Part shown: positions 17,313 to 64,000 of the stretch, in pieces
Layout of the letters: the number at the start of each line of letters is the position of its first letter
How positions within the stretch are numbered: position 1 is the first letter of the stretch
Assembly (NCBI GenBank): GCA_014729775.1
Contig: WJJJ01000021.1
Span: 24,788 to 88,787, forward strand
DNA: 64,000 bases
Direction: 5' to 3'
DNA from: Candidatus Omnitrophota bacterium
GTDB taxonomy: Bacteria > Omnitrophota > Gorgyraeia > Duberdicusellales > 4484-171
Notes under the pieces: generated by a model
Told to the model about the DNA's origin: nothing
Databases searched by the model: none
The model's input: only the letters and a program-made list of their open reading frames with translations
Made by a program: the position numbers and the translations under genes

Positions 17313-17349
17313 ATCCGGGATCAAGTATCGAACATCCAGAATCCCCCTC

Positions 17350-18117: not shown

Positions 18118-18118
18118 C

Positions 18119-22268: not shown

Positions 22269-22316
22269 TGAAAAACCTCCTCTTTCGCTGTTTCAACGCA
22301 GTCTTGTTCGCGATTG

Positions 22317-31078: not shown

Positions 31079-31089
31079 GATCGTAGGTA

Positions 31090-32055: not shown

Positions 32056-32102
32056 GATTCATGCTTATAAGAAGTAGGAAGCAAGATACAAGAAGTAAAG
32101 AA
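32056..32102. repeat. Purine-rich flank (inverted copy of the CTTAC-type element) on the left side of the IVS-protein insertion
   Basis: cttataagaagtaggaagcaagatacaagaagtaaag. Its reverse complement resembles 32508-32549. Confidence 0.5.
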
Positions 32103-32507: not shown

Positions 32508-32549
32508 CTTAATTGTATATCTTATTTCTTGCTTTTTGTTTCTTACTTC
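32508..32549. repeat. Polypyrimidine CTTAC-type element (copy 3) on the right flank of the IVS-protein insertion
   Basis: cttaattgtatatcttatttcttgctttttgtttcttacttcttatc. Confidence 0.5.
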
Positions 32550-34247: not shown

Positions 34248-34427
34248 ATGATACCTTCCTTTTTTATTCAATGAAACCATATTATACCTGATTGGATGGG
34301 GAAAATAAAGGGAATGGGTGAGCTCTTTTATCCGGGACGATAGAGCCTTCCCAGACGGCGCGCGTTAAGCCGATCCGGCTCCTGGGCTGGGACTTTTCGC
34401 TCCGCACGCAATATTCGCGCAGAACCC

Positions 34428-37400
34428 TCATCGTTTTCTTTTTCTGGATCTTCCGGACCTGCTTTTCCGCTTTTTCGCCGATAATGCCGGTTGATCCGGA
34501 CGGTCGCGTTGATGCCCTTTCTGCGCGGAAGAGAATCGCGCTCTCAGCGTCCGTTTCAAGAACAAACCGGCACAATACGCGCCGAAGAGTACCGCGCCTG
34601 TCTGCAGGACCAGAGCAAAGGTACTCTGAGGACGAACAGAGACGCCCAGACGTTCAAGCGCTCTGGCGACTTCTTCGCTGGCAGCGCCGTTATCCGGAGA
34701 ATAAAGGATCGCCTTCTCGTAATCGTTTCTGGATTTCTTTTTCTGACCGAGAGCGGCATAAGTCAGACTGCGATGAAAGTACAGCTGGGCATCTGCGGGC
34801 GCGATGGAAAGAGCTTGGTCAAACAGAGCAAGCGCGCGCCCGTAGTGTCCAAGCTCACGAAGGATAACAGCCCGGCACCGCAACCCTTCAAGTGAGCGCG
34901 CGTAAACGGTATCATATTCGCACGCCCGTTCATGATCAGCCAGCGCCGCTGGCAGGTCTTCCTCGACCAGATAATAGTAGCCGGCGCGAAGCACATAAGC
35001 CTGTGCTGAATAGGGATTCATCTCCAGCGCCTTATTGATATCGCTGATCGCCAGATCGTACCGCCCGGACTTACAGCGGACTTGAGCACGGTCAACCAGT
35101 ATCTGGTCATTAAGGGTGTCATGTTCAAGCGCGGCGTCGAAAAGCGCTATGGCCCGCTTGAAGGCGGACGGCCCTCCGTCCGCCAGGACCCGTTTCGCGT
35201 ATGACTGCAGACTCAGGCTCACCAGGGTCCTTTGACCCCCGAGACGAGCCATCCGGTAAAAACGCGCGAAGGGCGCATCATTACGCACCCGCAGATGATT
35301 TGCTTCCTGAAAAAAGAACTCCTCGAAATCAAAGTTCGCTTGAGCAACGCCGGTACCGGCCGCCGCATCGCAGTAGGAAAATCTTCGCGCTCCCTTTACG
35401 AGAACGGCGACATGGGAAATATCAAACGCCTCCTGATCGGCGCCGCCGGCCCTTCGCTGGGTATGTTCGTAGAGCTCTATTGGCACCGCTTTTATTTTAA
35501 GTGTTCGCAGAAGGTAATACAGCAAGATATTCATGCTTACACAATTACCGGTCTTCTCGAAGGCGAGCGCGCGCAGGCTGAACACACCAATGTCATAGCG
35601 GTATTTCTCCCTGATTGCTCCGGCGATCTCGCTGGCCGTCCTGAACACATCTTCTTCGACCCTATGCTGCCGTGACTGCGCCTGCCATATCCGCAGCATT
35701 GACCGGCCCTGCGCGTCTTTCCAGTCCGCCACGTCAGCCGCTATTCTCTCGGCCACTTCCCGGGGACGCCGGTCGCCGGCCGCCCGGCAATGCCAGTGAA
35801 TGCCGGCCTGCAGTGCCTGCGCCACAGATGTCTGCCCGTCACCCGCGGCAAAAGAAGACGGCGCCAACGCCAGCAGCGCCAACATTCCGGTTGTCGCCGA
35901 AAGGAAATACCTGCGCGAAGCCGTCTTCTCCCGCACACTGCCTCCCGGTGCTCCAGCGGGAGCGCGCATAGTTACGGGAGGGTGTACCGCCGAGGAAGCA
36001 GCAGGATTCACCTCGCAGTCGGCGGCCGGATAGACCATCATATAACGGTATCCCTGCAGTCGCAAAACCGATAATTCCCGAACCAGTGGCGTTCCGTGAT
36101 GTGAATCGATCACTTTCGCCTGCCAACGCCCGTTCCGGCATTTTAATCCCGGCACAAAATACGACTTATATGCCTGCGCAGCGATGAGCGCGGCATCTCC
36201 GTCCAGGACCGAACTGAACTGCTGCTGCCAAAACCGGTGATCGATCACCTCCCGTCCCAGAAGGATCTCCATTTTCCTCGGCCGGGCCAGCCGGCTCACC
36301 ACCGGCTGACTTATGCGGAGAAATCCATTCTCATCCAGGGTAAGATCACCCAATGCGTCCAACTCACACAGAATATCTTCTTCGGTTTCATTCCGGTATA
36401 CCTGCCGGTGCGGCAAAATCACCTGCCAGAAACTGAACGCGTGGATCAATGACCGCAGAAGACAGCCTTCAACCCGGGGATAATGGCTGTAAGGTTGGCC
36501 GGTGTACGTTTGTTTCGCCCATCCGTTGACCGGGGTGATATCATAATATTTTGTTTTGAAATCCACTGCCCCGGGAGCGCTTGCGGATTTCGATCCGCCT
36601 CCCTGTCCCTCTCGGAACAAATCTTTTCCCTGCGGGCGAAAGATGTGCGTGTCTTCCGGGAGACGAGTTTCTTTATTGAGATTTTGTTCGGACACACGCA
36701 CTATCCATTCGGGGATATCGGTTGTCACGTCTGTATCCGCCGCATTGATCCGCGGACGGCCTTGGAACAGAAAAGGCAAACGCAGCCCTGATACTAATTT
36801 TGGAGAAGCCGTGTACACCGTGCCGGCACACCCTTGCGCCGTGTACATAAATCCCTTCTGTAAGCGGATGACGGTACCCGGAGCAAGCACCTCCCGGCGG
36901 GAACGGCTCACCTGATAGGTATGATTTTCCAGATAGGTCACACTCACCGTATCCACCTGATTATACGTATGCGGATGCCGGATATTCAACGCGGGAGAAA
37001 CCGGTTCACTCAACCAGCGCGGGTCATCGGTCGAGAAAGGTTCCTGTTCGAAAGGGGTCACGTCCTCCGCGAAAAATTTACGGAATACATGAGCATTATG
37101 GATAAAAGGAGTGGATACCTTTACATTCCTGATACGCAGCATACGCGCCCATTTCACGATCCAGGACAACACGGCCTGACTGATCCCAAGATTAAGATAG
37201 CGGCGGTCCTGGGGAGTGCGCCAGACAGTACCGATAGGATAGTATTGCGTTATCTCCAGAGAACGATCAGCATACACCGCAGCCACTACCCGGCGCCGTC
37301 GTTCCGCTTCACCGTTAATCACGGTACGCGCGGTCAACGTCATCACCGGCCACTCAGAATTCCCGTACTTTGGAGTGGTCATGACAATTGACAAACCGAC

Positions 37401-40400
37401 TCCCGGACGCTCTCCCTCCGGTTCTACAAGAGGGATCTCATTATCCGTATCCGCCGGAGATGATGAAGCCTGATCCGTTACGGACCGCGGCGGGGCCTCT
37501 TGCCTTCTGACACGACGCAACCACGCATCAATCCAGTAGATCAGGATCCCCGACCAGAGAATTCCCATATTCGCAGCGATTAACACAATGTATTCAGGGA
37601 AAAACGCCCAGCCCAGAGACAGCCCGCTCGCCCAGAATACCCCGTTACCCGCGTAAAGACGGAGGAAATCCTTCACGGTTTCTTTAAATTCAATATCCGA
37701 CCGATCTTTCCGCACCAGATATTTATGGATGGCAAAATTCGCGGGCAGTCCCACTACCGCTGCGAAAAGCGTGATATCAAGAAACACCTTCCAGAACACG
37801 CCGGGAACAAACGCGGTAAGGAACCCGTACCATGCCCCGAATACGACTATTCCCACGTATAGTCCCCCGAACAGGCTCCAGCGGCCGATCGCCGGCCAGT
37901 CTATCCGTTCGCCCCTGACGGTCTGGTTCATGTACATACCGCACCCCCGGGACACCCCTCCGACCACCGTCTTGATCCCAAGCGCGGCATAAAACCCGGA
38001 CTGAACCGCCGCAATATACCAATGACCGAAAAAGACCGAAAGCAAAACCGCTACGGCCGGGATCCCGGCAAGCACCCCCCACCGGAGATAGCGGCGCATA
38101 CGCGCCGTGAACTGGGCCTGTCGAGTGAACTTCTCCTCGGCCGGACTCGAAACACTCCCGTTTCCACTGGAATGATGAGAATCGTTGACCTCCGCATTTC
38201 TCTCCCGCTGACGCTGCCGGGCACGATCCGTGATCGCCAGCGTCGCGCAGCGCTTAAGCAACGTCACGTCAGTGGCAAAACACAGTTCGGTACGATACCC
38301 GTTGCGCCCGTATAACAACCCGATAAGCCCGCCCTGCAGGTCGAACACCGGCGCTCCGCTAAATCCTTTTTCGGCCCCTTGCGCTTCGATAATCAGCATT
38401 GCCGTCGGTTCCACCCGCCGCGCCGTGCCCCGGATCAACTGGAAGTTGCGGTAATTCGCATGCGGCGCTCCCGGTATGACTACCGGTACCCCTTCATGCT
38501 GTGAGGCGATTGGAAACGTACGGCGGGAATAAGAGGCAAACCGCCGCAAAGGAGTAAAAACATTCTCGGGATAACTGGCTTTCCGTATCCGCAATAATCC
38601 TATGTCAGGATATTTCTGGCTGGCCGTGACTTCACCCCACAACCGCCCTCTGTCGTTTTTCACCAATAATCGAGAAAGTTCGGAATAAAGCACATGAGCG
38701 GCACTGGCAACATAGTAAAAATCGCTGTCTTCATCGAATATAAAACCCGTGCCTCCGCCGAACCATGTGGTCTCATCCTCTCCATGCGTATGTCTCACGA
38801 CAACAGGTTTGCGGACGACCACAAGATTCTCGGCGATGAGTCTCAGCCGTTCATCGGAAATATGATGAAGCTTTTGGGAACTATACGCGGACAATCTCTC
38901 ATAGAGAAAACCGTCGCCCCCCTGCCGACGGCCGCGGGTGCCGCGTTCCCTGCCCGCAGGAGAACCGGCCGCGGTGCCAAACTGTGCATTCGCCGGACGT
39001 CCGTTTGTCACCCGGTAAATATCGCACGTAGAGCAATAACTTACCATGCAATGGTACTTCTCCACCCCCATGACCGGATCCGGCACCGGTAACCCAAAAT
39101 GGTACCGGCCGCCGCTTCTCAATATCTCCTCTACTATATCCACAGGAACGCCGGAAACCGGATCACGCGCTACCTCTTCCCGATTCCACAATATCGCTAC
39201 GCCGCCGGGAAAAAGGAGATACGCAAGTCCCTTCGCCAAACGGCGCAACGAGATCTTGCCCACGTCGCCGTCCCAACATGACTCAAAGGTAGCGCCGCCC
39301 AACTTTCTCTCTTTCAAATATTCATAGACAAAAAACCGCAAATTTCGGCTTTCTGCCACAGCCTCCGGGATCTCGCCGGGCAGCACGTAAGGCATATTCC
39401 AGTTTACAGCGTCAAACCGCAATCCGGGAAACCGGGACTCGCCGTCCGGAGAAACGATATTGTCGGCGATCATCGCCTTGATCTCAAACCCGACGAGCTT
39501 CGCCGTATAGCGGGCGTTTGCGATCTCCATGGGATTGATACCGAGAGTATATTGTGTTTGTCCCGTTTTCAAATACATCAGCCAAAGCTCAAGCCCGGTC
39601 CCCGGACCGACCGTCAACACCCTGCTGCCGCGATGTATCCTTTTCTCCTCCCACAACATCCGATAATATTCCTGGTCCGCGTCGCTGTTTAACGACGGTG
39701 AATATACGGTGGGATATACGGGGGTAATAAGAGAATGCACCCGATCGGACTTTGCCTTATCAACGGCTCTGGTGTTCACCACCCACCCATTTCCGCCGAG
39801 CTGAAACAGACCATCCGTTTCCCACGCGCCGGTATCGCGGTCAATGCGGGCGACCACATACGGCAGCTGGCCATTACCCGGCCGTATCTCGCGGACCCCC
39901 TCCCGCAGCTTCGCGGTCGAGAAATCCTGAATAAATTCCGAATTACCCCGAGCTTCCTCCAGGAACGCTTCACAATGCTGAATTAAACCGGGATCATGAA
40001 GCTCCGGTATAGTAAAATAAAAATAACTCAGGTTCAGATATCTGGGATGTATTTCATCCAGTTTATCCATGCTTTGCAAAATATCCGAAGGAATCACCGG
40101 AAAAACCGCGACAAGCCGTCCTTGCTGATTATATAAAAGATCCACTTCTTCCAGAACGAATGCGTAAGGAACTACCAAAATATGCTTCAACACCTCTTGC
40201 CCCACACAGGCTCCCGCCGGCGAATCATGACTATCCGGCAGACGGACGCGCCGGTACCCGATCCCTTCGCGATGATGCGCCGCATTTCGCAACCCTAAGA
40301 AAAATAACAGGTCTGCCGCGACTGCCTCGCGAGCGGCGCTCTCCTGCGCACCGGATGAGTTGCGAAGATCGCTATCGGACTCCCCCGTTTCTCCCACATA

Positions 40401-43400
40401 ATACTCCTGACCGCAAAATCTTCGCTTAAACGGCGCGAATTTACTCATTCCTGCCGGCAGCAGACTCATTGATCCGAACCAAGGCGACCGATATGCGTGC
40501 CAGAGGCGGTAATTCTCCCGATTTGGTTTCAGCATCACCGCCCCGCTCTGTCCCCGTTTCCGGCGGCGCAGCACCACATTGAGACCCGGCCCGGATATCG
40601 ATACGTCTGTCACCTCGAACTGCTCCTCCAGCACGTCGAACGCCTTCGTGATTTTCAACCGGTTCCCGTCCAAATGATCGGCCCTCACCCCTCCGCGGAG
40701 GAACGTATACACCACACGCTCGACCGGCTCCTGCAGGGCATCCGCGACCGCGCGCACAAGACAATTCCTCCTAAGCTCAAACGGCACCCTTCCTGCTCCG
40801 CCGCGGGAAACGAGATACAATCCCGCTGAATACCGGATCTTTATGACAAAACGTCCCGTAGCGCGGCAGGCCGCGGCAAAAATTTGCCGTTCAGGCCTAT
40901 ATTCCTGAGGAACCGCGGCAATGCCCTGCTGAACCGCAATCGAGTATAACTGATGGAAAAACCCGCGATCGAACAATATCCTTTTTTGTTCGGCCTCGCG
41001 TAAAAGTTGCGCTAATTCCCGGGGATGATGAGAATAATATTCTTCACTGAAACAGCACGCCTTTTCATGTCCGGTACCAACCGCATAGCACGGACACACA
41101 CGGCCGGCCCCTGCCTCCCGGCGGCGCCTGTTTACCTCGCGATCCTGAGCAAGATGACGGAGCTCTAATTCTTCATGACGGTGCACATCGGCGAGTATTT
41201 CACTGCCGGGGTCCCTTCGAATCAATTCAAGCACTTGCCAGTGCACGGTGAAGAGAAGCCGTTTCACACTGTAATCAATCGAAACAAGCGGCGCGTATTT
41301 GTAAGGAACTACCCGCACCTCAATCGCTTCCGCCGGGGGCGCGTGGGGAAGAAGTCCTTCCAATAATTCTTTCACATATTCCTTGGCAAAATACCTGCCG
41401 AAAAACTGCCCTGGCAATGCTCCTTGAACACGGAAATCGCGGCGATCACTGTTTTTCGCGAATGTGACCGGCGGCTTCAAACTCCGCTTCCCGGCACACG
41501 CGGCGTAACAAATTCGTCCCGCGCGGGAAAAAGGCTCTCTTTCTGTGAGGGGACTGGAGCCGCCCCGGTGACGGAAAAGATCAGTGAACTGAAGGGTAGT
41601 GAGCTGATGCGGACGCTTTCCAAAATATTCGTATCCGGCGCTCTCCAGCACATAGCTATTTCGCGCAGTCCGGAAATGAGGAAGGCCCAACCGGCTCTTC
41701 GCGTGTGACCGCAGCACATATACCATCCCTCTGAGGTTATAAAACCGGTTTCCCCTGTCGGGAATATCAGAAGAAATGCTCACTGCGCCTGCCCCGCTTA
41801 TGGAAACAAACACATTACTTAACATTACGCCGTATGCGGCAAGGCCGCCGTACACGCCGTAATGAATCGCGCCGATATACACCGGCCGGTTCTCCCGCGG
41901 CATGATCTGCGTGACCCCGTCCTCGAGAGTACAAGTCTGGAACGCGATTCGGTCCGACAACTGCCGCGTACGCGGATGATGCGCGATATACCCGGAAACC
42001 GGCAGCCGATCCACGCCAACAAGATTACCGTTCAAAAATTCAAGCAGATTGGTTCTCCCACTGGATAACGCATCGGCAAAAAACCCCTCCACGTCGGGAC
42101 ACACGGGGCTGCGCAAAGTGAACATATCTTCCTTATCTTCCCGGTATGCTCCCGGAAACATAGATGAATGCCCGCAGCGCCGGAAAAAATTCGAAATCAA
42201 ATACTCAGTATGAAAAAACCTTGTTCGCGACCACGAATCTGGGTGAAGCGGATAAAACCGTTCCCGGCTCAAATAATTTTCCGCGGCCGCGATGATTTCC
42301 CGTCTGAGCGGGATATCCTGATTTTTTATTCTCATCAAAACCTGCAACGCGCTTCTCCGCACTCGAGCAGAAAACGGCCGCCTGGTGGCCGACAGCAGCG
42401 CTCTGATTACTTCCGGATTCATCCGGTCCTCATCACTTAAAGAAGTTAAAGCCATCCACACTTGATGAGAATGGCCCGGAACCGGATCCGTCAAAATTCG
42501 CACTGCTTTATGTTCGGGAACACGTCCATCCCGGGGAATAGCGCTGTCCGGATATATGGGACCGGGAGAGGAGCTGGTTCCGCTCTCTGACGATACCCGT
42601 TCAGGATTCAATCCTTTGCTTTCCGCGATCTCTCTCAAGGCCGACTCCGCCGGGCCCTTAATCTGGCGAATGCGTTCTCTGGTAACTCCAACTCTTTCTC
42701 CCGCCGCCTGCAGCGTCAGCACTTCTGCATCCTCCCCGATCGCAACCCGGATACGACTGATTACAGATAACTCGCATACCTGCAAATCACGCTCGGGATC
42801 CTTCCGGTTCCGGAATATCTCGCGCAAACGCGCCCGCAGCTCTTTAATAATCTCCCGGCCTAAGGCGTGGACACCCCGAACCTCTTCCTCAGTATCGGGT
42901 TTCGCCTCAAGGTCTTGCAGGACGGTATGACGGTCATCGAAATCCTGCCCTCCCCCGGGCTGATCCAATGAAACCGCGCCTCTGTGCCGGACCAGGTAAC
43001 TGTCGATTTGCTGCACAGGCACCCCGGTTACCTCGGAAATCTCTGCCGGGGACAACAGCCCGGTGGAAAGCTCTATATTATGCTCCCGGCACAGGTTTCT
43101 TAGTTTCCTGTCTTTTTCCTGCTGAGACGTAGGAGTCCGTACTATATGTTTCTGTCCCTGGATTTCCCGGGTAATCACTTGGCGGATCCACCAGCTCGCA
43201 TAGGTCGAAAATTTGTATCCGGTTTGGAATTCATAACGCGGAATTGCTCGGTATAAACCGATATTCCCCACACTGATCAATTCCATCAACGTAAACGGAT
43301 GACGAAGATACTTTTTTGCAAATTTTACTACGAGGCGGAGATTGGAATTCCATGCCTCGGTATGAGACTGCCTGTTCACCCGGCGTTCCTCGGTCCTGTT

Positions 43401-52400: not shown

Positions 52401-55400
52401 TAACCCCGCCCCCTTGTTCATGTACTTTATCGCCACCCGGATGGACTCGGTCATAAAAATAGGGGTATCGCTGCGAAAAGATAAGCGCCGCTGTGCTGGA
52501 TCGTATACCCCGCGGTAAAGAAAAGGAACCGAATCCTGCTCTTCCCCGTAATAAGTATTGAGCCGGCCGGAAAGAGCCCAGCATATCATCTGATGATATC
52601 CCGTCTGCAAAGCGTGATATCTGCTGTTCCAAAGCGGACGTATCTGATTGAGCTCCTGATAATCAGCACCCATAGTGGAAAGCACCTGCGCTATCTCTCC
52701 GGCATCACGGTTCCAGCGGTAAAAATATTGCATTACATAATTGAGCACTGCCGCGGTATTCGTATATTCTAAGCGGCTTATCAATCCGAATATCTCTAAC
52801 CGGCTCACCTCCCGCTGGAACGAGATTCCCAGCTGTTTTTCCCGCCCCCGGGACCACCGGCCGAATGCGTCTTCCTCTCCGGTTTGACCCTGGACGGCAG
52901 GCGAGCTGGACTGAAGTCTTTTTTTCTCGCTTGTAACCAGCTGCCTCCAGTACCTCGCCGGCGGCGCATGCTCAAAAAACCATGCCTCGGTAAGCACCCC
53001 GGGCTTCATCGGAAGTCCGGGACAATACCACACCTTGTCGCGCCGGCTCCAGCGGCTCTCCTGCCGCGGATTCTTGTAGATCACTTCTTCGCCGCCCTGC
53101 GCGATGCGGAATAAATGCGCTTTATGAAAACTGGTATGCAATCCTTCTCCCGCACTGCCCCCAATACCGATATTGACAAACGGCCGCAGCGCTTCTTCGA
53201 TAGAATAACGGTTGTCCGAAATATTCTTAAATCCCCCGCCGTTATCGAACGAAACAATGATCATCCGTCTATTCTCCTCTGAAACCGGCTCGACGAAACT
53301 CAAGTAAATCCCGTATTCGTTTACATGCTGATACAAATTCTCCAGGTTGCATTGGACAAAGCCTTGCGCGGTATCCCACGCCCCGAGTACCGAAGCGACA
53401 CCGCCATAGGTATCGTCGTCTTCGTAGCGAAACACCGCGTCGAACACATCCCTGCCCGCCCGGGAAGAGCCCAGTTTCATTCCTCGTTTCGAATAGACGA
53501 AGACCGATCTCCATCCTATCTCACGCAAACCGCGCATCGCCTTCTTGTAGGCGCGGATATTTACTTCAGGCGCGCCGGGCATAAATTGATGCGCGGCATC
53601 AAGCAGATTTCTGGACTGCGCATGGACAGCTCCTAACGGGCTGGACACCTGACTCACCCAGTACGAACCCCGGGCGGATCCGTGACCGGCAAGGTGTCCG
53701 TTATTGTCAGAAGCATACGAGCAACAGACATGGGGAAAAACTTCAAGTGCGAAGTGGTCCTTGAGCATACATATTGCCCCGCCCACGCACCCGGCTTTAT
53801 CGGACCACTCGGGTATAACCCGGCCGGAATCGCCAAACCCGGCCGTTTCTCCTCCTATGGAAACCGACCGTATTCCTAAATCTCTGAAGCCATCTATAAC
53901 CGGCTGCCAAAATTTTCGGCACTCCGCGAGTCCTCGAGACGGAAAGCGCTGCCGCTTCACCGCCGGAAGCGGAACGTCTTCGAAGGAATCAATATCCACA
54001 ATGACCGCCCGGGTTTTTATTCCGGACACTGCCGCGTAACTGCCCCCCAGCACAAACAGGACTCCAAAAGATTCCTCAAGCGCGTGAATCGTGTTCTCCA
54101 CGTATTTTTCCGCATGCGCGACTGCCGGACGATATTTCCACCGGCCGGATTTACGATCTAAATGCCACCGCCCTGCGTACCATCCCAATATATGCACGTA
54201 GAGAGAAACCCTTCCCCCCGCCTGCCTGATCAGCGACTCGAGTTTTTGCCGATGCGCACCGGTAGCGGCGTACCAGGGAACTCCCCGTTTCGAAAGAACC
54301 TCTTTTTTATCCGGATCCGGGAACGAATATCCTCCGCCGATCAAAGAATAATCCATTCCCGCCGGGCTTGATCCCGTGAAATCATCGACACGGGTAGTTT
54401 CCGTGATAAGTTCATCCAACAGGGCTCGGTCGTTCCCTTCCCTCTGCATCTCATCTGCCGCGCGCGATTGATAGTACGCAAATAACGACATCATCTTCCG
54501 CGCCGTATGGTACCCGGGAGAATCACTTCCTCCGGCGCTTTTGCGGACAGTGACCATATAATCTTCGAGTAAAATGCGGAACATAATACACAATGAAAAT
54601 ATGTCATCCGCCAACAGACAGAGACGGGAAGTCGCGGTAAAATCGTCCCCGCAGCGGGAAATCCTGTCTCCGCTGGTGAACAAGCGCTTGTAGAGACGGC
54701 GCCTCGCGCGGGCGACCGGATCTTGTGCACCAATCTTCGTCGTTGTATCATTATCAAAATACACGATCCGGGAATCTCCGGCTCCTCTTCCCTCACACAC
54801 GGACACGTCAAAAAATGAAATATCGCCCTGAATATACCCGTTTTGTGCATAAAGCGCACGATAGGAGGAAAACACGTCCAGAACGATCAACCCAATATTT
54901 TTCGCCGCGGCAATCCCGGAACCCAGCGGGTGAATCGAACGGGTGAAATAATCGACCAGCAATTCTCCATTTAATAATTCGAACACAAGCCCTGTACCAA
55001 ACCGGTCCGCGGACGAAAACTTCACCCGGCCGAAGTACCGGGGAAGGTGGTGCAATGAATCGTTGGCCGGATTAAGCTCAGAAAATATATTCTCCTGGGG
55101 CAAAAGCAGAGAATCCTGAACCGTTTTGCGCACGTCTGCTTCCACCTGCGGATCGGGAAGCTTACACACATAATGAGCCCCGGGGACTAATACTCCGTCC
55201 GCCGCTCCTTGGTATTTTGCTCTTACCACCGCTTTCCCATTTATTCGGCGAAATGTATCCTCCACCGCGAAATCCCGTTCTAACGTATAGAGACGAACCG
55301 GGCTGGAACCGCCGCTCCTCATCTCTTCTCTCAGCCGAGTGAATGCGGATACATGATCCAGATAGTTCTGGGTGTTGCTTTGGCCTTCACGGACCTTCGC

Positions 55401-58400
55401 GCGGAAAAAATCACCAAACGTACGGTATCCCGCCATACCGGCCAAGCCGTCAACGATCTCCATAAAAGGTATTATTCTGAAATACCCCTCCATCTCGTCG
55501 AACACCGCACAGAGCTCCCGGGCATACGTAAGAGACACATCGAGCACCCGGCCGGCATCCCTGCCCCGGTATTCCAGGCTGAATCCTGATTCCACCTTGT
55601 ATTTTCTAAGAACATCCACAACGCGGTTCACCAACGCTTCAACGCTTCGAAAATGATGATTTTCAGCCAGGAACGGATACTCCTGCTTTTTAAGATCAAC
55701 CTGCAGCGGTAAGCTGTTTATTGCCTGGAGACCGTCGGAAAAGAAATGGATCGTGAGCGCAAAAAACGCCGTCCACAGTAATGATTCACTCCGCGTTCCC
55801 CGGGTAAGCAGCTGCGGAGCGTGCGCGATAATTTCTTCTTTCTGGAATTGATCAAAAATCCCGGGGGCACCGACCGCACCCGTTTCGTCAAACAAGTTAT
55901 CCGCGATTTGTGTGATTTCATCGTGAACGGGAGAAGATACTGAAAGATCTTGGGAACTGCGCTTGACCTCCTGCAGATCACGAATTACCGCTCCCATATC
56001 CGGATACCGTTGTTGGCGCGGTTGAAGACAGCGCAAGGCAATAGCGTACGCCGCGCCAAAATTCTCGTCCGCGAGCTGCTCCTGCCGCTGCAGGGCGGCC
56101 CGGATCCGCAGCAAGGCGGCAACCGCGTTGTCCCGCATCATATATTCCAATATCTCCCGCGGCTCCAGAATGACGGCCAGCACCATCCCGAAACTGTACA
56201 CATCCCACTGCTCCGTAAACAGCCGGGTTGAAGCTTCTAACGCGCCGGTGCGTTTCGCTTCACGACGACCGAAGGCCCAAGGTTCATAGCTCTCGCAATA
56301 AATATCGGTATGGATGGTGCGCACGATTTCCGGAATGCGGCCGGAATTTTCCACCCAGTCGTAACGCAGCGGTACCGCGCTGTCCTGATCCACAAGGCAC
56401 ACCGTTTCCCGCAAATTTTCATCAAGCCGCATCCGGATATTTGTCGGTTTTAATTCCTTCACCAGAAGCCCCCGGCGGTGACACTTTTCTACCGCATCCG
56501 CGACCGCCAGCGCGAGCCGCAATTTATGCCTCTCATCACGAGCCAATTGAGGCACCCATCTTTCCATCGCCAGCAAATCGCCCAAATTCACGGAAGGAAC
56601 AAAATCCATGATCAGATACGGGAATTCCCTCCGCCAAAAACGGGGCGCGAGAATTTGTCCTCCTTTTAACTTACACCATCCCTTCCCGTAATAATGCGGG
56701 ATCACGCTCTCTTCGGTCAGAGTTTCGTAATGCCGGGACAGCCATATCACGTAATTAATAATCCGTCTGCGTTCTCTCAAAGAAAGCACATCATTCCGCG
56801 GTCCGTTACAATACACTTTCACCGCGTAGGGCCCATGCGCTTTATCTTTCGCGCTGACTTTATATACACGGGCGTAACTCCCTGCACCTACTATTTCCTG
56901 GGTACGCTGATCAAGGTCGTTCATTGTAACTCGCGGGCTGCCCGCATTATCTGATACGGGAGAGGACCCGCTCAGACGTCCAAGGCGCCGGACCGTATTA
57001 TCAAATATATGACCGATATGTAGGGTGAGCCCGGGGATCTTTAGTTCTTCCTGCACTTTTTCAACCGCCCGTTGTTTGGCTGTTTGCACCGCATGGGGAT
57101 CAAGCCTCTGTATCACAAACGCCTCTTTCAAATACCCGGGCACGATGGTCCTGAGAGTAAATAACTGTTCTATCTCAAGCTGACGCAGCGTCCTTTCATT
57201 CTGTATCTCCTCTTCCCATATCACACCTAACGGAAAATCAGATAATAGAGACACCACCACCGACCGCACACCGCCGTAAGCCCCAAACATCTTGATTGCG
57301 CCCTCTCTGTGAGAATCCCATTGCGCGTATTCCTCCAATACGCCTGCCGTATCTGCATGTATCACCGCTCGGATGCCGGCAGCATCTGTCCTGTACCGAG
57401 GGCTCATCACGATCGCCCCCCTTACTCGCGGGGTCTCTTGTAACACCGCATCAATAAAGCGTTCCAGAACACCTGAATCATCTTCGGTCAGCAATGACGG
57501 GATATCTTTCCTTGAAAAAACGCGCGGCCGGGCGTACTGAACCGTCTCCTTTCCGGACATCAGCGCGCTTTTCTTTTTGGAAAAAAACAGTGCGCGGATA
57601 TGCAAAGGTGCCGCGTACGCGCTGCTCATGTGGCCGCGCTCATGAAGTAATGTATCCAACCGCGGGTAATGACCTATGCCGCGAATGACAATCACGTAAT
57701 CTCCGGGATACGCACCAAGATAGGTATCAATGTCGTCCGCCAACGCTTCGTCTCTCAATCGAAGCGCATCCTGGTTTTGCCATCCGGAAAGGTGCCGTTT
57801 CCAAAAATTCACCGCTTCCATATCATCTAAATCGATTTCTCTTTCTTTAAGAAGCGTCAGCAGATTGCGCAGCTGACCCAACGTAAGCGCCAGATCCGGA
57901 GCTTCCTCCTCGATACGGATAGTACGCCCGCGTGAGATCTGTGCCCACAGATACCGGTTACGGGCAAGCGCGTAAGGAGTAAACGAGTATACCGGTTCTT
58001 CGCGGGGCCGTTCTTCGGCGTTGAGCACCTCACGCAGACCCTGCAGATGATTTGAGGTCTCCCGGTCGATGACCGCCATAATGTTTCGGGCAACCTGCTC
58101 ATCTACGGTATCTTGTCGATCCAGTTGGCGCAGGGCTTCTCTGAATAGTGCGGCGTCAAGCTTCTCTACATAGGTATATCCCCATTCAAGGAAAAACGCC
58201 ACCCGCCGTTTTTCTCGTTCCGCACGCGCAAGTACCGTTTCGGCCGCGGAGACCCTGAGGTCAAAGTCAAATCCCTGGGCATGATACCCGTAAAGAGAAA
58301 ACACCCGTGTCTGTCCGGTGATCGAACTTCTAAACCGTGCAAGCATCGGGTCGGCGGCCGGTCCATTGTGTGAAAGCACCGCATCTTCGCCGAATACATC

Positions 58401-61400
58401 CGCGGGAAAGAATCCGCTCATCATCCCGCTCAACATCAAAGATACGAATACTCGCCTGTCCGTTGACACCGCTGAAGATGCCCGGAAAGGAAAATATGGC
58501 CGCGGTTTGGTATATACCGGCTGCAGCAGGCGAGACGGCCCCACCAGCCACGGAGAGGTAACCGCACTCAGTCCGTGCTGCAACCGGTGAAAATATTCTA
58601 ATAAAGGCGAGCTGCTTTGCGGAGCATCGCCATCGCGTAAATTTTTTATTTCTTGCCGTAACGCTCTTAATTCGTCGGCGATATCATCAAAGACCTCTTC
58701 CGCCTGACGCTCACCGCTGTCCAGCGCGATGAACAATTCTTCTAGCGCATCTATACGACCCTGCAGGAAACTCGCGCTTCTTTCCGGAATACGCGGCGAC
58801 ACCGCGGACCGGGTGTGTATCTCATTTTCCCGTTGCGCTAACTGAGCGGAGAGGCCGGCGAGCCGGACTCCCTCAGCCTTGATATCCCGGGCGCGTTCTT
58901 CGAGTTTTCTCTGTTCAGCGGCAAGCGTCCGCTCGCGCAAAGATAATACGTCTTCCTGCCGCTTACGCCCCGCCGCCCAGTCGGCGCGCGTCTGTTCAAT
59001 CTGTCTCTTACGCGCGTCCAATGCCGCCTGTTGTTCAGCCAGGACACGGCGGTCTGAATCAATCCTGCCGCGCTCTTCTTGAATCCACTCACCTGCCTGT
59101 TCCTGTTCGTCCTCAAACCGCCCCCGGGCGGTCTCCAGCCTTGCCTTTTGACGCTGAAGTATCCGTTCCCAGCGTGATAGTCTTATTTCCTTGCTTTCCG
59201 CTTCCTGTTTCCTCCCGGCTAATTTTTGTTCCCGGACGGCTACGGCACGTTCTTTCTCATCGAGTTTTCGCTGTTGACGCGTGAAACGCTGTTCCCATTC
59301 TCTCAGAGATGCGTCCTTTTCCTCCTGTTCCTGCCGCGCCTGTAGTTTCTGCTCATCCAATCGTTCCTGTTCCTGGGCGATATTTCGCCGCTGCTGCGCG
59401 CACTGTTCTTGGATCTTCTTCAGCTCGGCACGGGCTCTGTCGATCTTTTCCCGCAGCCGGACAAGTTCACGTTCAGCCTCATCGGCCTCTCTTACACGCT
59501 CACCCATCTCCCGACGCTGACGTTCAAGGATCTGCTGTTGCCGCGCGAGGTCCGCTTCCCGCCGCGTGAGCTCTTCTTCCCGCACAGCGATCTGTTCCCG
59601 GGCTTCATCGACGGACTGTTGCTGGTATTTGGTCAGTGCGCACTGCGCACGCATCCAGAACATTCGCAGACGAACTACGCCTTTTTGGAATACCGGTTTT
59701 ACCCGGGAGGGCCGCTGCCGCGCCCGCAGTGCAGCCCGACGTTGTTTTTTCTTCTCTTTTCTGTTCCGTTTTCGCGCCGCTCGCCTCTGCTCCCGTAACC
59801 CGCCCCTCTGCCGCAGAGACGGCGCATCATTACTTTCTTCTTCGGTATCCGGTACGATCTCGGCACGCCGGTTCCAAAACAGCCCGTATGAGAGAATGAT
59901 GACCGCTGCCGAAGCAAACACCCGCAGGACGATGGAATACCCGGCCTCATCATAAGCCGGATTGATCCCTACATAATACGTAATGAACACCACCGCCGAT
60001 CCGGCCAACGCGGCGATCCAAAAAGGATGAGGCCATCCGGGAGCATGCACGGAGGGAACTTCATCCCGGTTGCCTTTCTCCCCGGATCTGCGCGGACGGG
60101 CCGGGGAAGATACCGGCATGCCCGACATATCAGGACCCGCTTCATTCCTCCCGCTCGGCCCGGAGATTGCCGCCGACGACGAAGATTGTGCCGTCAGTAA
60201 ATGCCGGTAGTCATCCAATTCCGAAAAGGGAAGCACTCCCGGGATTTCCTCAACCGGTGTCATCGCGCAATCCATCCACCCCATCATAAGGCTCAGGTAG
60301 CGGAGAGAAATATCCCGAGAAAGAAGGGTGTAGTGTTCTTTTTTCAATCCCAGTAAAAGCAGCGTTTCATACGGTTTTTTCTTGTGGGGGAACACAAAGA
60401 AATCACGCTCGACGACAGGGCGGGCGGCATTGGTGAGATTGTAGCGGCGCTCATGGGCAGAAACATCAACTATTTCAACCCCTTGTTCCTCAAGAAACCG
60501 CCTGTATTCGGCATTTTTTTGCGCTTCGAGCTCTCCCCGGTAGAGAGGATCGGAGAGAATCGCCGGCTTCATATTCTGCCGGACATGAGCCGGCACGTAC
60601 AGCAGCACTCCATCGATATGCCCGTTTTCGACAAGGAATTCATACGGGTACGAGTCCCCTTCAAAAGAAACGGGCACCTGCGCGCTTATCCAGCCCGCGG
60701 GGAACCGGTATGTCTCAAGACGCTCATATCCTTCTTTGGTTCTCAAATAAGAACGCAGCTGATTCACCGCTTCCGCTGATACTGAATCGGAAAAAATGAC
60801 AAACGGCGTCAGCCCTACCCCTGAAACGGCTGCGCCTTCCGCAATGAGATCTTCTTCAGGGGACGAATCCTGCGCGCCGGAACGGAACCGGGACACTCCC
60901 GTAAGATAACGGTACGGACGTTGCGGAATGAGCGGAAGCCATAACCGGGAATCTTTAAACCATACAGTCCGGTCTTCCCACGGCAGATGTAATGAGAAAA
61001 CGTGACGGGGATGTCCGCTCACCGAGAGACGGGAAACAAAACGTGAAACACCGTCCAGTTCACTGTTAATGTCCCTTGCGCCTAAATCAAGGAAACTTCC
61101 CGAAAAATCGACCGCTTTTGAAGCGAGTTTACCCGGCACAAAGTGCTTCTGCCCGGAGCCGGAAAAATACTCAAGAACTCCTTCTGTGCGCCACCGGCCG
61201 CTTTCCTCCCCCATTATCCGCGAGGCGCGCCGGGTACCCGCAGGAGTCTGGAGTTCGCGCACAAACTCGGCGACCCCGCGCATCTGCTGTGCCAGATATA
61301 TTTCCCGCTCTCCTAATCCCGCGAGGATCTCTTCGTCAGAAGGAGCCGCCCTGCCCTGATGACGACGCACCTGCGCCCTTGCGAACGCATCCTCCGCTTC

Positions 61401-64000
61401 ACGCACGCGTGCGACCACCGCCTGTTCCCGGCCGTTATAAAAGATCTGCGTGGCGACGTTCATAAGCACCTGCTCATCGGCAAGCTGCGCCCCGAAATCT
61501 GCCGCTCCTTCAATAGTGGATTTGACCATATCGATCAGATTTTCGTACCTTTCAACATTCAAGCCTATTCCGAGTCCCGGATCCGCAACCTTGCGACCTT
61601 CGCTACGTGCCGCAAGGATATCTTCGGACACATAAAGATCAAAAGGAGTATCCCTCGATACTTCCACGAAGAGGTATTCATCCGCCGCTAACCGAGTGGA
61701 CTCGATATGCCTCGAAGGAGAAGAACTGCTCCCCGGAGAACCGTTCACTCCGTATGCGAAACCCTCAGCCGTCCGGACCGGACCGACAGCCGTGAAATTT
61801 TCCGGGAGATTGAGACCGGTTCCCGCCGTGATCCCGGCGGGAACCGCAGAGGAAACCGGTGACGATACGGTATTTTGCGCTGAGAGAATACGGCGTGTGC
61901 CCGCACTTCCGGAACCGTCCGGGGAAAAGGAGAACGCGGCCCAGGAATTCGGCGGCAAGCTTATCCTGATATTCCCTTCCCCAGATTCCAGAGTAACATC
62001 ATCGCGGGAACAGAATGCGAAGTTATCCGTATTCGGCGCAGGGTAACCACGGTGAGAAAATGAGGAACTTAATGCCTCCGGATCAATAACCGCCTCTTCC
62101 GTATGCGCTCCCCGGTGGTTTATGACGGCCACACCTATCTCGTCCTGATACACACGCACCAACGGAACAAGGGAAGAGCGGTGCAAAGATTCCGGTTTCT
62201 TCAGATGCAGAGCGGAAAAATCTCCCCGGCGGAACACCGGACGGGAAATAAACTTAATCAGAGACTCAAATTCCCGGTCTGCTGCTTCCGGTTCGGCAAT
62301 TACGTCGGGATACCGGTACCGGTAAATGCCCGCATCGGGAGATTTCATCGAGATATGACAGATTCCTTCTGGATGGTTTTGTGTGGCAGTCAGCGGATAT
62401 CCCATGCCGAACAGCTGACGCAGGGTCACCAGCACATAGCCCGGCAGAGCAAAGCTTAACAGAGAAGCGCCTAGCGCGTACTCGCCGAATCCCCGGGGAT
62501 CACGGAAAGGCTCTTCATCATGGTTCTCCGTAAAATGCAGACCGAGGTCAAGATATCCGCGCGGCGCGCGGTAAAAAATATAGTCCCGCACCGCAGGCGC
62601 GCCTTGACCTTTCACAATATCGTACAGCCGTTTATCATAGGGAATGATCCCTGCACGCTGGAAAAATCCGGTGCGGCCGTCCCACGGCACATGCCATTTG
62701 TCGCCCGCTTCATAACTTTCGGCAAACGCGAGCATACCGCTCCCGGCGATTTCATCCATCACCTCTTCCCAGAACTCATGCGGCATGCGCTCCTCAAACT
62801 CCTTCCACGATAATCCCAGCGGATATCCCCAGGTCGCCCAGAATTGCAGACGAAGCGCGTAAAACGCGAGGTCGGCGCGGAATCCTCCGCCGCAGGTAAG
62901 TCTGCGGATATTTCCGGAAATCACATTCTTCATGTACCGGCGCGCCGACGGCAAAAGATAATCTACCTGTGCCAGGTTAGGCATATGGGCTTCTCCCGGT
63001 CCGTACCAGGCATTCTTCACTATCGTACGGTATGCGTTCGGATATACATAATGACGACTTTTGCGAAAGAAGGCACGCGCATACAGATTTTTCTTTCTAA
63101 GACTATCCAAAAATTCCCGGCGTGTCATATGCGGCCAGAACCTGTCGAGCCGCCGGGCCACTGTTAACGCGTCATCAACCGAATCCCACTGCATCGCGAC
63201 CCCGCCGCGCTGCACGATAAGCGAATCAGCGGCTACGTGATTGACGACAAAATCAAGCAGAGTGCGCATACCATACCGCTCCCGCAGCCTGCGCGCGGAG
63301 TTCATGAATTCTTTTTCTGATCCCAGACAAGTATCCAGCGTATAATCGTACACATCATAGGCTGACGCCCACCGAAAAAGAGTTTCATGGTCTGTCCTTT
63401 GCCAATGACGCATCATCCGCGCGGAAAGAGGACTCTTGCGCCACGCGCCCTTAATCCAGACCACCCTTATTCCCAGCCCCGCGATCCATTCCCAGAATTC
63501 TTCCGGAACGTTGCCTATCGTTCCGTAGGTAGCGGACAACGCGCGGGCGTCGATCTCCAGCACAACGGAAGTATCCGCCGGCGAACTCCCCTTCCCGAAT
63601 ACGATACTCTCGACCGTGTTTTTCTGCTCATTGACTTCCTCAACAGCATGTAAAAACTCTTCTCCTTTCATTTCCCTGTTACGTAAGAATGCGGTCATAC
63701 ACATATGGGGCCGAGTATGCTTCGGATCCATAATACTGACACTGATAACGCCTTCCTCAAGAGAAAACACGACGTCGCTCGAAATACCGGCATTATCCAC
63801 TCTTCGGTAGGAAAGGACCTCCATGTCAGGGTAAAGTTCCAGCGGTGACAGAATCAGCCCGTTTCTCTTTCTTGTTTTACTCACATCCACCCCGAATCCG
63901 GAAAAAACTGCGTATTTTTTGTGTATCCATCTTAAAACACGCTGAGCCTGCTCTCCGATCATTTCTCCCTGCGGACGGCGTATAGAAGCAATATCCAAAG
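34428..64000 (-). CDS. Giant multidomain protein, at least 9,856 aa, 5'-truncated by the window edge (the ORF is still open at 63998-64000)
   Basis: A single stop-free reading frame of 29.57 kb, which cannot arise by chance at this GC content. Six residue positions checked directly against the nucleotides match the translation. It has many recognisable domains (see the sub-features), a stop TGA at 34428-34430, and a C-terminus of ...[14 protein letters not shown]. Confidence 0.9.
   Translation of the reverse strand, partial: [9856 protein letters not shown]
34431..34622 (-). other. Giant protein: C-terminal TM helix plus a polybasic KR tail
   Basis: [21 protein letters not shown] followed by ...[17 protein letters not shown] and the stop. 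Confidence 0.5.
34629..35201 (-). other. Giant protein: TPR repeat region (residues ~9600-9790)
   Basis: At least 4 TPR-like 34-aa units (e.g. [50 protein letters not shown]). Confidence 0.6.
35319..35681 (-). other. Giant protein: transglutaminase-like cysteine protease core (residues ~9440-9560)
   Basis: Cys motif [19 protein letters not shown] (verified on the nucleotides) with a downstream His (DISHVAVLV) and Asp (SYCD). Confidence 0.55.
35841..35936 (-). other. Giant protein: twin-arginine (Tat)-like signal motif embedded internally (residues ~9355-9386)
   Basis: [28 protein letters not shown]. An in-frame ATG (M9344) lies at 35967-35969 but has no obvious SD. Confidence 0.3.
37515..38093 (-). 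other. Giant protein: cluster of about 6-7 predicted TM helices (residues ~8636-8828)
   Basis: Successive about 20-aa hydrophobic runs ([99 protein letters not shown]). Confidence 0.55.
38259..38801 (-). other. Giant protein: trypsin-like (S1/DegP-type) serine protease domain (residues ~8400-8580)
   Basis: His (TGFIFDE...VASAAHVL), Asp (YPDIGLLRI) and Ser ([17 protein letters not shown]) triad motifs are present in the canonical order. Confidence 0.65.
39189..39671 (-). other. Giant protein: class I SAM-dependent methyltransferase-like domain (residues ~8110-8270)
   Basis: Motif I [13 protein letters not shown] was verified on the nucleotides. A second, weaker MTase-like motif ([16 protein letters not shown]) lies at about residue 5900. 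Confidence 0.5.
42624..43646 (-). other. Giant protein: complete sigma-70 family module, regions 1.2, 2, 3 and 4 (residues ~6785-7125)
   Basis: Region 1.2 ([19 protein letters not shown]), region 2 ([41 protein letters not shown]), region 3 (HIVRTP...) and region 4 HTH ([31 protein letters not shown]). Region 2 was verified on the nucleotides at about 43209. Confidence 0.8.
44394..44756 (-). other. Giant protein: GHKL/HATPase_c-like ATPase module no. 2 (residues ~6415-6535), lying about 250 aa N-terminal of the sigma module
   Basis: N-box ([12 protein letters not shown]), G1 ([10 protein letters not shown]) and G2 (GTGLGT) are present. The start was verified on the nucleotides. Confidence 0.55.
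46764..47201 (-). other. Giant protein: degenerate Fic/Doc-like motif region (residues ~5600-5745)
   Basis: [25 protein letters not shown] resembles HPFx(D/E)GNGRxxR, but the catalytic His position is Gln/Leu. Confidence 0.25.
47649..48821 (-). other. Giant protein: GT4/GT-B glycosyltransferase domain (residues ~5060-5450)
   Basis: The N-half ([29 protein letters not shown]) and the C-half EX7E region ([30 protein letters not shown]...ETGLLVE) were verified on the nucleotides. Confidence 0.75.
49119..49451 (-). other. Giant protein: Pol-beta-superfamily nucleotidyltransferase-like motif (residues ~4850-4960)
   Basis: hG[GS]-x9-DhDh pattern: [21 protein letters not shown]. Confidence 0.4.
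50439..50528 (-). other. Giant protein: Lys-rich histone-H1-like tract (residues ~4491-4520)
   Basis: [30 protein letters not shown], encoded by an AAA/AAG-rich run. Confidence 0.6.
50823..50900 (-). other. Giant protein: helix-turn-helix (XRE/Cro-like) motif (residues ~4367-4392)
   Basis: [24 protein letters not shown], verified on the nucleotides. Confidence 0.45.
51594..51986 (-). other. Giant protein: GHKL/HATPase_c-like ATPase module no. 1 (residues ~4005-4135)
   Basis: N-box ([11 protein letters not shown]), G1-like (RIENDNN) and G2 box ([13 protein letters not shown]) are present. Confidence 0.5.
56049..56921 (-). other. Giant protein: Ser/Thr protein-kinase-like domain (residues ~2360-2650)
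   Basis: Gly-rich loop ([12 protein letters not shown]), beta3 Lys (YAVKVY), catalytic-loop-like [17 protein letters not shown] with E in place of the HRD Asp, and DQD in the DFG position. Confidence 0.55.
58809..59636 (-). other. Giant protein: long coiled-coil segment (residues ~1455-1730)
   Basis: About 280 aa dominated by E/R/Q/K/A/L with heptad character (e.g. [55 protein letters not shown]). Confidence 0.65.
59694..60029 (-). other. Giant protein: two predicted TM helices (residues ~1324-1375) followed by a polybasic K/R stretch (~1398-1435)
   Basis: Hydrophobic runs [20 protein letters not shown] and [22 protein letters not shown], followed by [25 protein letters not shown]. Confidence 0.5.
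62319..63551 (-). other. Giant protein domain: GH13 (alpha-amylase family) catalytic domain, residues ~150-560
   Basis: Conserved regions I (LLDFVVNHV), II ([11 protein letters not shown]), III (EEVMDEIAG...AESYE) and IV ([10 protein letters not shown]) are present. FTENHD was verified on the nucleotides at 62517-62534. Confidence 0.7.

Follow-up and report, generated by a model that had tools for sequence, protein, structure and literature searches.

Giant open reading frames (ORFs) of the phylum Omnitrophota, taken by Seymour et al. (2023) as frames longer than 20 kb in an Omnitrophota genome, have already been catalogued by the thousand, and the question they raise is the fate of their products. 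West-Roberts et al. (2023; bioRxiv 10.1101/2023.11.21.568195) defined multi-enzyme 'Archaeovorins' and dockerin-type giants. The type sequence of the former is the protein of Ca. Velamenicoccus archaeovorus LiM, with 39,678 amino acids (aa) and 42 reported helices. The Archaeovorin threshold in that work is >30,000 aa or 90 kb, and Nielsen and Lui (2026; bioRxiv 10.64898/2026.06.07.730766), whose 916 long proteins include a 'multi-enzyme metabolic cluster' as class 1, begin their catalogue at 10,000 aa. Cleavage was suspected by West-Roberts et al. (2023), but missing 'information about cleavage points' blocked their analysis; a survey of huge proteins named protease motifs that are not known as the obstacle, and the text of Nielsen and Lui (2026) never mentions the words linker, motif, cleavage, polyprotein or sigma. 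We analysed a 64,000-nt stretch (the window) of a Candidatus Omnitrophota bacterium (assembly GCA_014729775.1, contig WJJJ01000021.1, positions 24,788 to 88,787) that holds the 3' part of such a gene. The product may be a polyprotein cut at a short motif, S-S-P/A, that recurs at the junctions between its units, a reading to which we assign a probability of about 0.5.

The 3' part of the giant ORF occupies positions 34428-63998 of the minus strand. From 63998 the frame ran through 9,856 sense codons without a stop until it met a TGA at 34428-34430, 29,571 nt in all, and it was still open where the window ends, with its 5' part beyond. Given the room left on the 122-kb contig, the full-length protein would have roughly 29,000 aa at most. 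The second-longest open stretch of the window was 823 codons. About 4.5% of random codons at the minus-strand base composition are stops, from which simple arithmetic gives a probability of about 1e-197 for a run of 9,856 codons without a stop. When codon usage was trained on 25 neighbouring genes, frame 0 scored highest in 19 of 19 tiles of 500 codons, and the GC content of first, second and third codon positions was gene-like along the whole frame. A reading made earlier from the letters and a list of ORFs (the sequence-only reading) had claimed a single stop-free minus-strand ORF of at least 9,856 codons, open at the boundary, and the frame count and the coding score in every tile bear this out. 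Its remark that plus-strand ORFs of the span are short also held, the longest being 210 aa.

The only internal DNA repeat of the giant ORF was a single 31-nt pair of 71% identity; because the ORF is practically repeat-free, it does not invite repeat-mediated misassembly. Self-comparison of the translation (self-BLAST) gave no internal paralogs at E<1e-5, and no Rfam family (intron, ribozyme, other RNA or tRNA) was found in the entire window. With aa 1-4599 as query, the protein collection that we searched returned one match only, the protein P0001, and a sequence search of the PDB returned none. The 29.6-kb frame truly encodes protein and forms the 3' end of an Omnitrophota giant gene of a known kind.

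By host, domain mix, helices and downstream genes, the gene appears to fit the multi-enzyme giants (Archaeovorins, or class 1), and 29,571 nt open in an Omnitrophota host place it within the definition of Seymour et al. (2023). Profile searches in tiles had been suggested by the sequence-only reading; a Pfam search over ten tiles of the translation, with NCBIfam and structure-sequence searches beside it, found many different domains along the chain. The assignment to a kind of gene reported from Omnitrophota proved sound as well, since the host belongs to that phylum and both the domain mix and the downstream solute-binding and ABC-transporter genes match published multi-enzyme giants. Eight proteins encoded near the giant gene are identical to NCBI entries (MBD32462xx) from one Omnitrophota metagenome-assembled genome, all located on a single 122,050-nt contig. 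As in Archaeovorins, one ORF combines glycosyltransferase, glycoside hydrolase, methyltransferase, peptidase and TPR units with weak HEAT matches (profile search); several transmembrane helices are present, at lower density than the 42 in 39,678 aa of the LiM protein, and the sequence is poorly conserved. West-Roberts et al. (2023) described type II/IV secretion-like genes upstream and PilZ, solute-binding proteins and binding-protein-dependent transporters downstream; the last two are found here too, whereas no PilZ gene follows the window's giant. Unlike Archaeovorins, the visible 9,856 aa hold no SecA_DEAD, C39 or S8 peptidase, NUDIX or GT5 domain; SecA_DEAD and C39/S8 features are reported near the ends of full-length Archaeovorin genes, and the N-terminus here lies outside the window. 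Conversely, the full sigma-70 factor and the S1B-type protease found here are not mentioned by West-Roberts et al. (2023).

The likeness to class 1 of Nielsen and Lui (2026) is that many Pfam families tile the chain and none is dominant, that the HATPase_c, GT1, methyltransferase, peptidase and TPR/HEAT families match their modules 1 and 2, and that class 1 consists mostly of sequence singletons, which the window's giant nearly is. The visible 9,856 aa are part of a longer frame, whereas the catalogue starts at 10,000 aa. Repetitive giant adhesins (the giant ORFs of Chlorobium chlorochromatii and RTX adhesins) share the extreme ORF length and presumably a host-associated lifestyle, but the window's giant has neither internal protein nor DNA repeats and no adhesin, dockerin, TSP3, cadherin or Ig-like domain (Pfam). 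A repetitive adhesin was ruled out, as no tandem domain arrays were found (self-BLAST, E<1e-5), and so was a dockerin-type giant in the sense of West-Roberts et al. (2023), for which the ten tiles gave no Pfam match. A megasynthase of the non-ribosomal peptide or polyketide type was ruled out by the lack of condensation, adenylation, thiolation and ketosynthase/acyltransferase matches in Pfam and NCBIfam.

The junction motif and the units it separates

The visible chain consists of 32 pieces, or about 30 different protein-sized units, mostly of 200-860 aa; roughly half of the units had no match at all in profile searches. Between the units we found a short junction with the consensus [S/V/G/A]-S-S-[P/A]-[A/V/L/G]. 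Conservation was limited to those five positions, and the commonest residue right after the motif was Ala. SSP occurred in 23 copies against 2.2 expected, with a maximum of 10 among 500 shuffles. Inclusion of the SSA variant gave 28 strong sites, which together with 4 weaker sites (GSP, SAP) divide the chain into its 32 pieces. The full pattern was found 27 times in the giant and never in the 10,460 aa of 30 neighbouring proteins. A low-complexity Ser/Pro linker was ruled out, as the permuted tripeptides were at expectation (SPS 3, PSS 2, SPP 1, PPS 0 and PSP 0 copies). Junction serines were encoded by a mixture of AGT, AGC and TCN and prolines by all four codons; because these codons vary between copies, the junction is selected at the protein level and conserved in its residues, not in its DNA.

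The 28 strong junctions all lay outside the Pfam and NCBIfam envelopes (16% coverage; P=0.007). Matches to the GT4, kinase-like, HATPase and sigma families stopped 13-38 aa short of the next junction, and neither the 573-aa sigma unit nor the 864-aa unit 27 contained an internal copy. Since junctions lie outside the envelopes and recognisable proteins end just before them, they mark the ends of whole proteins and not every domain boundary.

All sites are on the minus strand and are given here by the residue number in the visible chain. Copies of SSP preceded by Gly were located at aa 138 (G-SSP-A, 63579-63587), 2345 (G-SSP-V, 56958-56966), 2898 (G-SSP-V, 55299-55307), 3210 (G-SSP-A, 54363-54371), 6570 (G-SSP-A, 44283-44291) and 7481 (G-SSP-L, 41550-41558). 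Val preceded it at aa 712 (V-SSP-V, 61857-61865, with a second copy, V-SSA-V, at 61845-61853), 1297 (V-SSP-A, 60102-60110), 2688 (V-SSP-V, 55929-55937), 3452 (V-SSP-L, 53637-53645), 4822 (V-SSP-A, 49527-49535), 6090 (V-SSP-T, 45723-45731) and 8617 (V-SSP-A, 38142-38150). Ser was found in this position at aa 759 (S-SSP-S, 61716-61724), 1796 (S-SSP-L, 58605-58613), 3698 (S-SSP-A, 52899-52907), 4599 (S-SSP-A, 50196-50204), 5565 (S-SSP-A, 47298-47306), 7143 (S-SSP-G, 42564-42572) and 8846 (S-SSP-A, 37455-37463), and Ala at aa 5045 (A-SSP-N, 48858-48866) and 5788 (A-SSP-G, 46629-46637). The least typical copy was D-SSP-E at aa 1045 (60858-60866). The SSA form stood at aa 1274 (S-SSA-A, 60171-60179), 1841 (A-SSA-V, 58470-58478), 3940 (S-SSA-V, 52173-52181) and 9335 (A-SSA-V, 35988-35996). 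Some adjacent junctions enclose very short pieces of 47, 23 and 45 aa (61725-61865, 60111-60179 and 58479-58613, minus strand), which could serve as spacer peptides or be what is left of lost units.

Several units between these junctions are of kinds expected in different compartments. Module 25 (42573-44291, minus strand; aa 6570-7142) comprises an N-terminal extension and a full-length sigma-70 factor of the RpoD/SigA type. Sigma regions 1.2-4.2 span aa 6787-7122 and end 21 aa ahead of the next junction; the module matched Sigma70_r2, r3 and r4, positions 3-298 of 298 of TIGR02997 (E=7.5e-47) and SigA/RpoD structures (E=1e-29). Sigma-70-like units were also seen in two other giants, P0075 (4,999 aa; by visual reading) and P0077 (by Pfam matches), and sigma factors within giant frames thus appear from their sequences to be recurrent, not a one-off.

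Twin-arginine (Tat) type signals stand inside the chain. Module 9 (56967-58478, minus strand; aa 1841-2344) has a twin-arginine-like signal at its start (SSAVSTDRRVFVSLMLSGMMSGFF, 58440-58460) and an HExxH motif, HERGH, at 57630-57644. Module 32 (34431-35996, minus strand; aa 9335-9856) consists of a junction, a Tat-type signal (TASRRYFLSATTGMLALLALAPSSFA, with the motif at 35898-35918), TPR repeats, a C-terminal hydrophobic helix and a basic tail, and also gave a weak transglutaminase-core match. Module 29 (37464-38150, minus strand; aa 8617-8845) is a polytopic membrane unit; of its four hydrophobic helices, the first is preceded by an RR motif 15 aa past the junction. Three of the four signals of the type 'RR plus hydrophobic stretch' lay 4-24 aa past a junction, where only 9.7% of all positions lie, and an RRxFL Tat motif stands behind a junction both in module 32 and in a module of the same architecture in the relative P0011.

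Module 28 (38151-38966, minus strand; aa 8345-8616) is a trypsin-fold serine protease by its match to Trypsin_2 (positions 1-144 of 144, E=8e-11), and its closest solved relatives are the Spl proteases of S. aureus (S1B). The His (ASAAHVL, 38688-38708), Asp (YPDIGLL, 38592-38612) and Ser (GFSGAP, 38349-38366) residues align with the catalytic triad of SplD and SplF. Its upstream boundary is a weaker, GSP form of the junction.

Related giants and a split locus

The unit that connects the window to its relatives is module 2, a GH13/alpha-amylase-like enzyme (61866-63587, minus strand; aa 138-711) with junctions at aa 138 and 712. It is common to at least 15 other Omnitrophota giant-ORF fragments and one free-standing gene. 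Used as a profile query in an exhaustive search, it matched 19 proteins at E<1e-30, mostly fragments of several thousand residues, and the named proteins among them all came from Omnitrophota metagenome-assembled genomes. The amylase-like unit is flanked on either side by a junction motif in the window, P0001, L001/L002, P0011, P0017, P0018, P0022 and P0077; in P0010, P0014, P0015 and P0016, a motif stands 1-16 aa upstream of the conserved start of the unit (…EIDARAL). Adjoining units vary by protein and include hexokinase, phosphofructokinase, GH77, esterases, a PCMT-like methyltransferase and phosphoribosyl pyrophosphate synthetase. Module 1 of the window (63588-63998, minus strand; aa 1-137), which is cut by the window edge, aligns over its last ~70 aa with the unit preceding the amylase-like module in P0015.

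The type of junction differed among these proteins. Junctions of the SSP type were found in the window, P0001, P0011 (16 copies against 1.1 expected), P0015, P0016 and P0017, the SSA type in L001/L002 and P0022, and an SSS[V/I] type in P0018 and P0010. P0077, a complete ORF of 7,836 aa, has instead the junction G-[A/S]-R-[L/M]-[A/G] in 19 copies against 0.1 expected, with variable wobble positions. This ORF (L034:3001-26511, JGI Ga0247727_10000187, on a 143-kb contig) carries an amylase-like unit and a sigma-70 unit of its own, and three of its junctions stand in tandem 20-residue spacers (…REPRGSRLAVTKF…). An origin of GAR[LM]A as ribosome-binding site plus start codon was ruled out; the codons GGN GCN CGN CTN/ATG do not resemble a Shine-Dalgarno sequence and include CTC.

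Like architecture was present in independent assemblies, including contigs of 280 kb (L002), 143 kb (L034) and 24 kb (L035). Between two near-identical assemblies of one relative, the ratio of non-synonymous to synonymous polymorphism (pN/pS) was 0.17 over 2,250 codons, indicating purifying selection. The HExxH modules of P0011, L002, P0019 and P0030 had no significant similarity to each other or to the window, and HExxH modules were dropped as candidates for a processing protease because they are mutually dissimilar across relatives.

In one relative the units are separate genes. On contig L036 (Logan SRR22387764_1375980), positions 53-6480 hold genes for GH77, an amylase-like protein and PilZ, followed by orthologs of OppB/OppC. 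The amylase-like protein, P0012 (580 aa), is 40% identical to the unit in the window and is encoded by a free-standing gene, which has a start of its own 14 aa ahead of the conserved core and a stop 6 aa past the last conserved strand; its two ends therefore coincide with the junction positions of the giants. Upstream, beyond an AT-rich spacer with many stops, lies a free-standing GH77 gene in a different frame; in L002, GH77 forms one unit of the giant ORF. Downstream follow PilZ and then an OppB-like permease with 51% full-length identity to OppB of the window. The same units thus exist either as separate genes or as modules of a single frame, at loci sharing downstream genes. In the GH77 protein of L036 a junction-like …GESSSAKAV… persists 30 residues ahead of the stop, possibly left over from its fission from a giant ORF.

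Proposed cleavage at the junctions and its alternatives

In the reading that we favour, the gene would act as an operon written in one frame, with a single start and one translated chain. Either the embedded serine protease or one encoded at another locus would cleave the chain at its junctions, and the freed proteins would disperse, the sigma factor and enzymes to the cytoplasm, the anchors to the membrane and the proteins with Tat signals across it. Features shared with polyproteins were found in the chain, namely protein-sized units, a short recurrent motif and an embedded protease whose catalytic residues are intact by alignment. Tat signals must normally stand at the N-terminus, and sigma factors work bound to RNA polymerase. 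We favour a polyprotein because the units belong to different compartments (sigma factor, Tat signals), because the type of motif varies while its position stays, as expected for pairs of protease and cleavage site, and because a protease of the narrow-specificity S1B group with an intact triad is embedded in the chain. Extended to the Omnitrophota multi-enzyme giants as a group, the proposal that they are cellular polyproteins, cut at motifs differing by protein (S-S-P/A/S here, G-A-R-L/M-A elsewhere), is put forward tentatively and with slightly less assurance than for the window's gene. The sequence-only reading had named a protein of more than 1.08 MDa; an open frame of that length stands, but the anatomy of the chain suggests that its product may be processed into many proteins and not kept as a single polypeptide. 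The role in cell-cell attack that it proposed found no backing in the visible content, which is mostly typical of cytoplasmic proteins (sigma factor, kinase-like units, GT-B glycosyltransferase, histidine-kinase ATPase).

The nearest analogues in possible working are the MARTX toxins and viral polyproteins, and we claim membership in neither family. MARTX toxins of Vibrio are chains of several thousand residues in which an internal protease cuts short linker motifs to release unrelated effectors; they are secreted, contain RTX repeats, and have a cysteine protease domain that host inositol hexakisphosphate switches on. The giant resembles them in joining unrelated units and an internal protease in one chain with short motifs between the units, cleavage here being a proposal. 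It differs in that Pfam detected neither RTX repeats nor the cysteine protease domain, and in its housekeeping, regulatory and metabolic cargo. Polyproteins of positive-strand RNA viruses are likewise made of gene-sized units with an embedded chymotrypsin-fold protease (picornavirus 3C, flavivirus NS3), lineage-specific junction motifs and products with different destinations. The giant shares with them gene-sized units in one frame, an embedded chymotrypsin-fold protease, varying short motifs and units of different compartments. Unlike them, it is a gene of a cellular chromosome amid housekeeping genes and is 3-10 times longer, and its embedded protease is only a candidate for the motif.

A number of observations weigh against cleavage, which we infer from the sequence. 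The protease of module 28 had no word-index homologs, and neither a phmmer match to it nor a GxSGxP motif was present in the giants compared or in the complete P0077; because no counterpart was detected in other giants, the S1B-like protease does not accompany the motif as a conserved partner. Most serine proteases disfavour a proline beside the bond that they cut. We could detect no recurrent junction motif in six related giants (P0013, P0019, P0020, P0030, P0037 and P0075). In a crude test over 11 proteins, signal- or anchor-like segments followed 7.1% of junctions and 6.1% of random positions (p=0.36). Significance was reached only by the stricter twin-arginine pattern within the window's giant. 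Finally, a tethered multi-enzyme protein with conserved hinges would explain many of the same observations.

That last explanation is the most serious rival, although we give it clearly less than an even chance. The giant would be an uncut, membrane-anchored multi-enzyme protein and the motif, lying between tethered enzymes, a hinge, a docking site or a site of modification. Within this model the embedded kinase-like modules might phosphorylate Ser-Pro, or a parvulin-type isomerase might act there. Most literature on Omnitrophota giants assumes an uncut protein, published models depict membrane-associated coats, and a conserved Rotamase_2 isomerase is encoded near giant genes (West-Roberts et al. 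2023). In the window itself about seven hydrophobic helices, TPR modules, weak HEAT matches and kinase-like modules agree with such a structure, as does the failure to find a conserved protease partner. A hinge, however, would not be expected to mark whole-protein boundaries while sparing other domain boundaries, and the SSA, SSS and GAR[LM]A variants indicate that Pro, and in P0077 even Ser, is dispensable. Internal Tat-type signals and a complete sigma factor would be hard to use while tethered in a chain of >1 MDa, and a relative has the same units as separate genes. Those separate genes on L036 and the gene-like size of the units are also what one would expect if the modules were made separately by internal initiation or by termination and reinitiation, the giant being an operon minus its stop codons, and some modules do have a Met shortly past the junction. 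Yet Met occurred within 15 aa after 24% of junctions and 23% of random positions, and for this lack of enrichment we reject the idea, which we hold to be highly improbable: the usual residue after the motif is Ala, whose codons are unable to start translation, the varying motif codons leave no RNA-level signal, and ribosomes would read through anyway where there are no stops.

We consider it equally hard to credit that the junction is a recombination handle for module swapping with no role in the finished protein, comparable to VENN before the exchangeable toxin tips of CdiA. The neighbours of the amylase module do differ among relatives, with reshuffling whose breakpoints lie at or near junctions, but only 3-5 residues are conserved, their codons differ (AGT, AGC or TCN for Ser, all four for Pro) so that no DNA identity results, and the gene contains no DNA repeats. 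Least credible of all is an artefact, either a chimeric assembly or a decayed, non-functional frame that is open by chance. The source is a metagenome-assembled genome and the giant protein itself was absent from the protein collection searched; against this stand coding potential by host codon usage in every one of the 19 tiles, the absence of repeats, like architecture on the independent contigs of 280, 143 and 24 kb, purifying selection in a relative and the chance of about 1e-197 for a random frame.

In the searchable literature, which is incomplete and makes the statement provisional, we found no description of a junction motif or of polyprotein processing in Omnitrophota giants and no proteomic or biochemical evidence of cleavage for any of them. 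The motif gives explicit candidate cut sites and a rule for splitting giant ORFs for structure prediction and annotation. If the giant is indeed a polyprotein, the motif predicts the cleavage map that earlier studies lacked, and cutting at junctions would explain cytoplasmic enzymes inside supposedly extracellular giants. Were cleavage confirmed, polyprotein expression, so far a matter of viruses and a few toxins, would be a way to organise cellular housekeeping and regulatory genes. The junction motif, together with the sigma factor and Tat signals inside the chain and the pair of split and fused loci, makes the question of whether and where giants are cut directly testable with existing proteomes (PRIDE PXD025008).

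Other modules and the genomic neighbourhood

The remaining recognisable modules, all on the minus strand, are varied. Module 7 (58614-60110; aa 1297-1795) has two hydrophobic helices at aa 1327-1370, followed by a basic patch and coiled coil over about 330 aa, with a weak SMC-like match. A crude hydropathy scan gave about seven convincing hydrophobic segments in the chain, those at aa 1327-1370, four within aa 8640-8822 and one at aa 9796-9814. Module 10 (55938-56966; aa 2345-2687) is protein-kinase-like (Pkinase E=3e-6, below the Pfam cut-off). Its catalytic motifs are degenerate, with VKELKPTN for HRDLKPxN and DQD for DFG, and it may be a pseudokinase or an atypical kinase; a second kinase-like unit is probably present at aa 2898-3209, judging from its sequence.

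Modules 18 and 19 (48867-50204; aa 4599-4821 and 4822-5044) are adjacent 223-aa units and weak paralogs of each other (E=8e-4; shared EYYFGD region). Three units in all measure exactly 223 aa from junction to junction (46638-47306, 48867-49535 and 49536-50204), and the one at 46638-47306 has a degenerate Fic-like motif, EGNHRTGAL. Module 20 (47628-48866; aa 5045-5457) is a complete GT4/GT-B glycosyltransferase by family profile; the GT4 match begins 23 aa past one junction and stops 38 aa short of the next. Module 24 (44292-45731; aa 6090-6569) ends with a HATPase_c domain (ATPase of the histidine-kinase type) 30 aa before the next junction. The largest unit, module 27 (38967-41558; aa 7481-8344; 864 aa), matched a methyltransferase weakly and shares homology in its N-terminal part with a portion of P0075.

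Same-strand genes begin 147 nt past the stop of the giant, and a scan found no terminator-like site after this stop on the minus strand. This downstream group (28210-34280, minus strand) encodes a solute-binding protein (SBP_bac_5), an ORF of the 23S_rRNA_IVP family, OppB-like and OppC-like (BPD_transp_1) permeases and two ABC ATPases. The 23S_rRNA_IVP ORF (32103-32507, minus strand; 134 aa, E=9e-34), a bAvd-like four-helix bundle, lies between the solute-binding protein and OppB, at about the position where a PilZ gene is reported in other Omnitrophota.

The rest of the window consists of ordinary chromosomal housekeeping genes, including those for LysS, ClpC, CysS, McsB, a branched-chain aminotransferase and MlaE. 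From 3100 to 64000, nearly 61 kb of genes are on the minus strand, with a steadily negative GC skew. At 11508-23880 (minus strand) the genes follow a Firmicutes-like order, mcsA(UVR)-mcsB-clpC … radA-PIN/TRAM(yacL-like)-ispD-ispF-cysS, which is broken by an mlaD/E/F lipid-transport cluster in this diderm-type genome.

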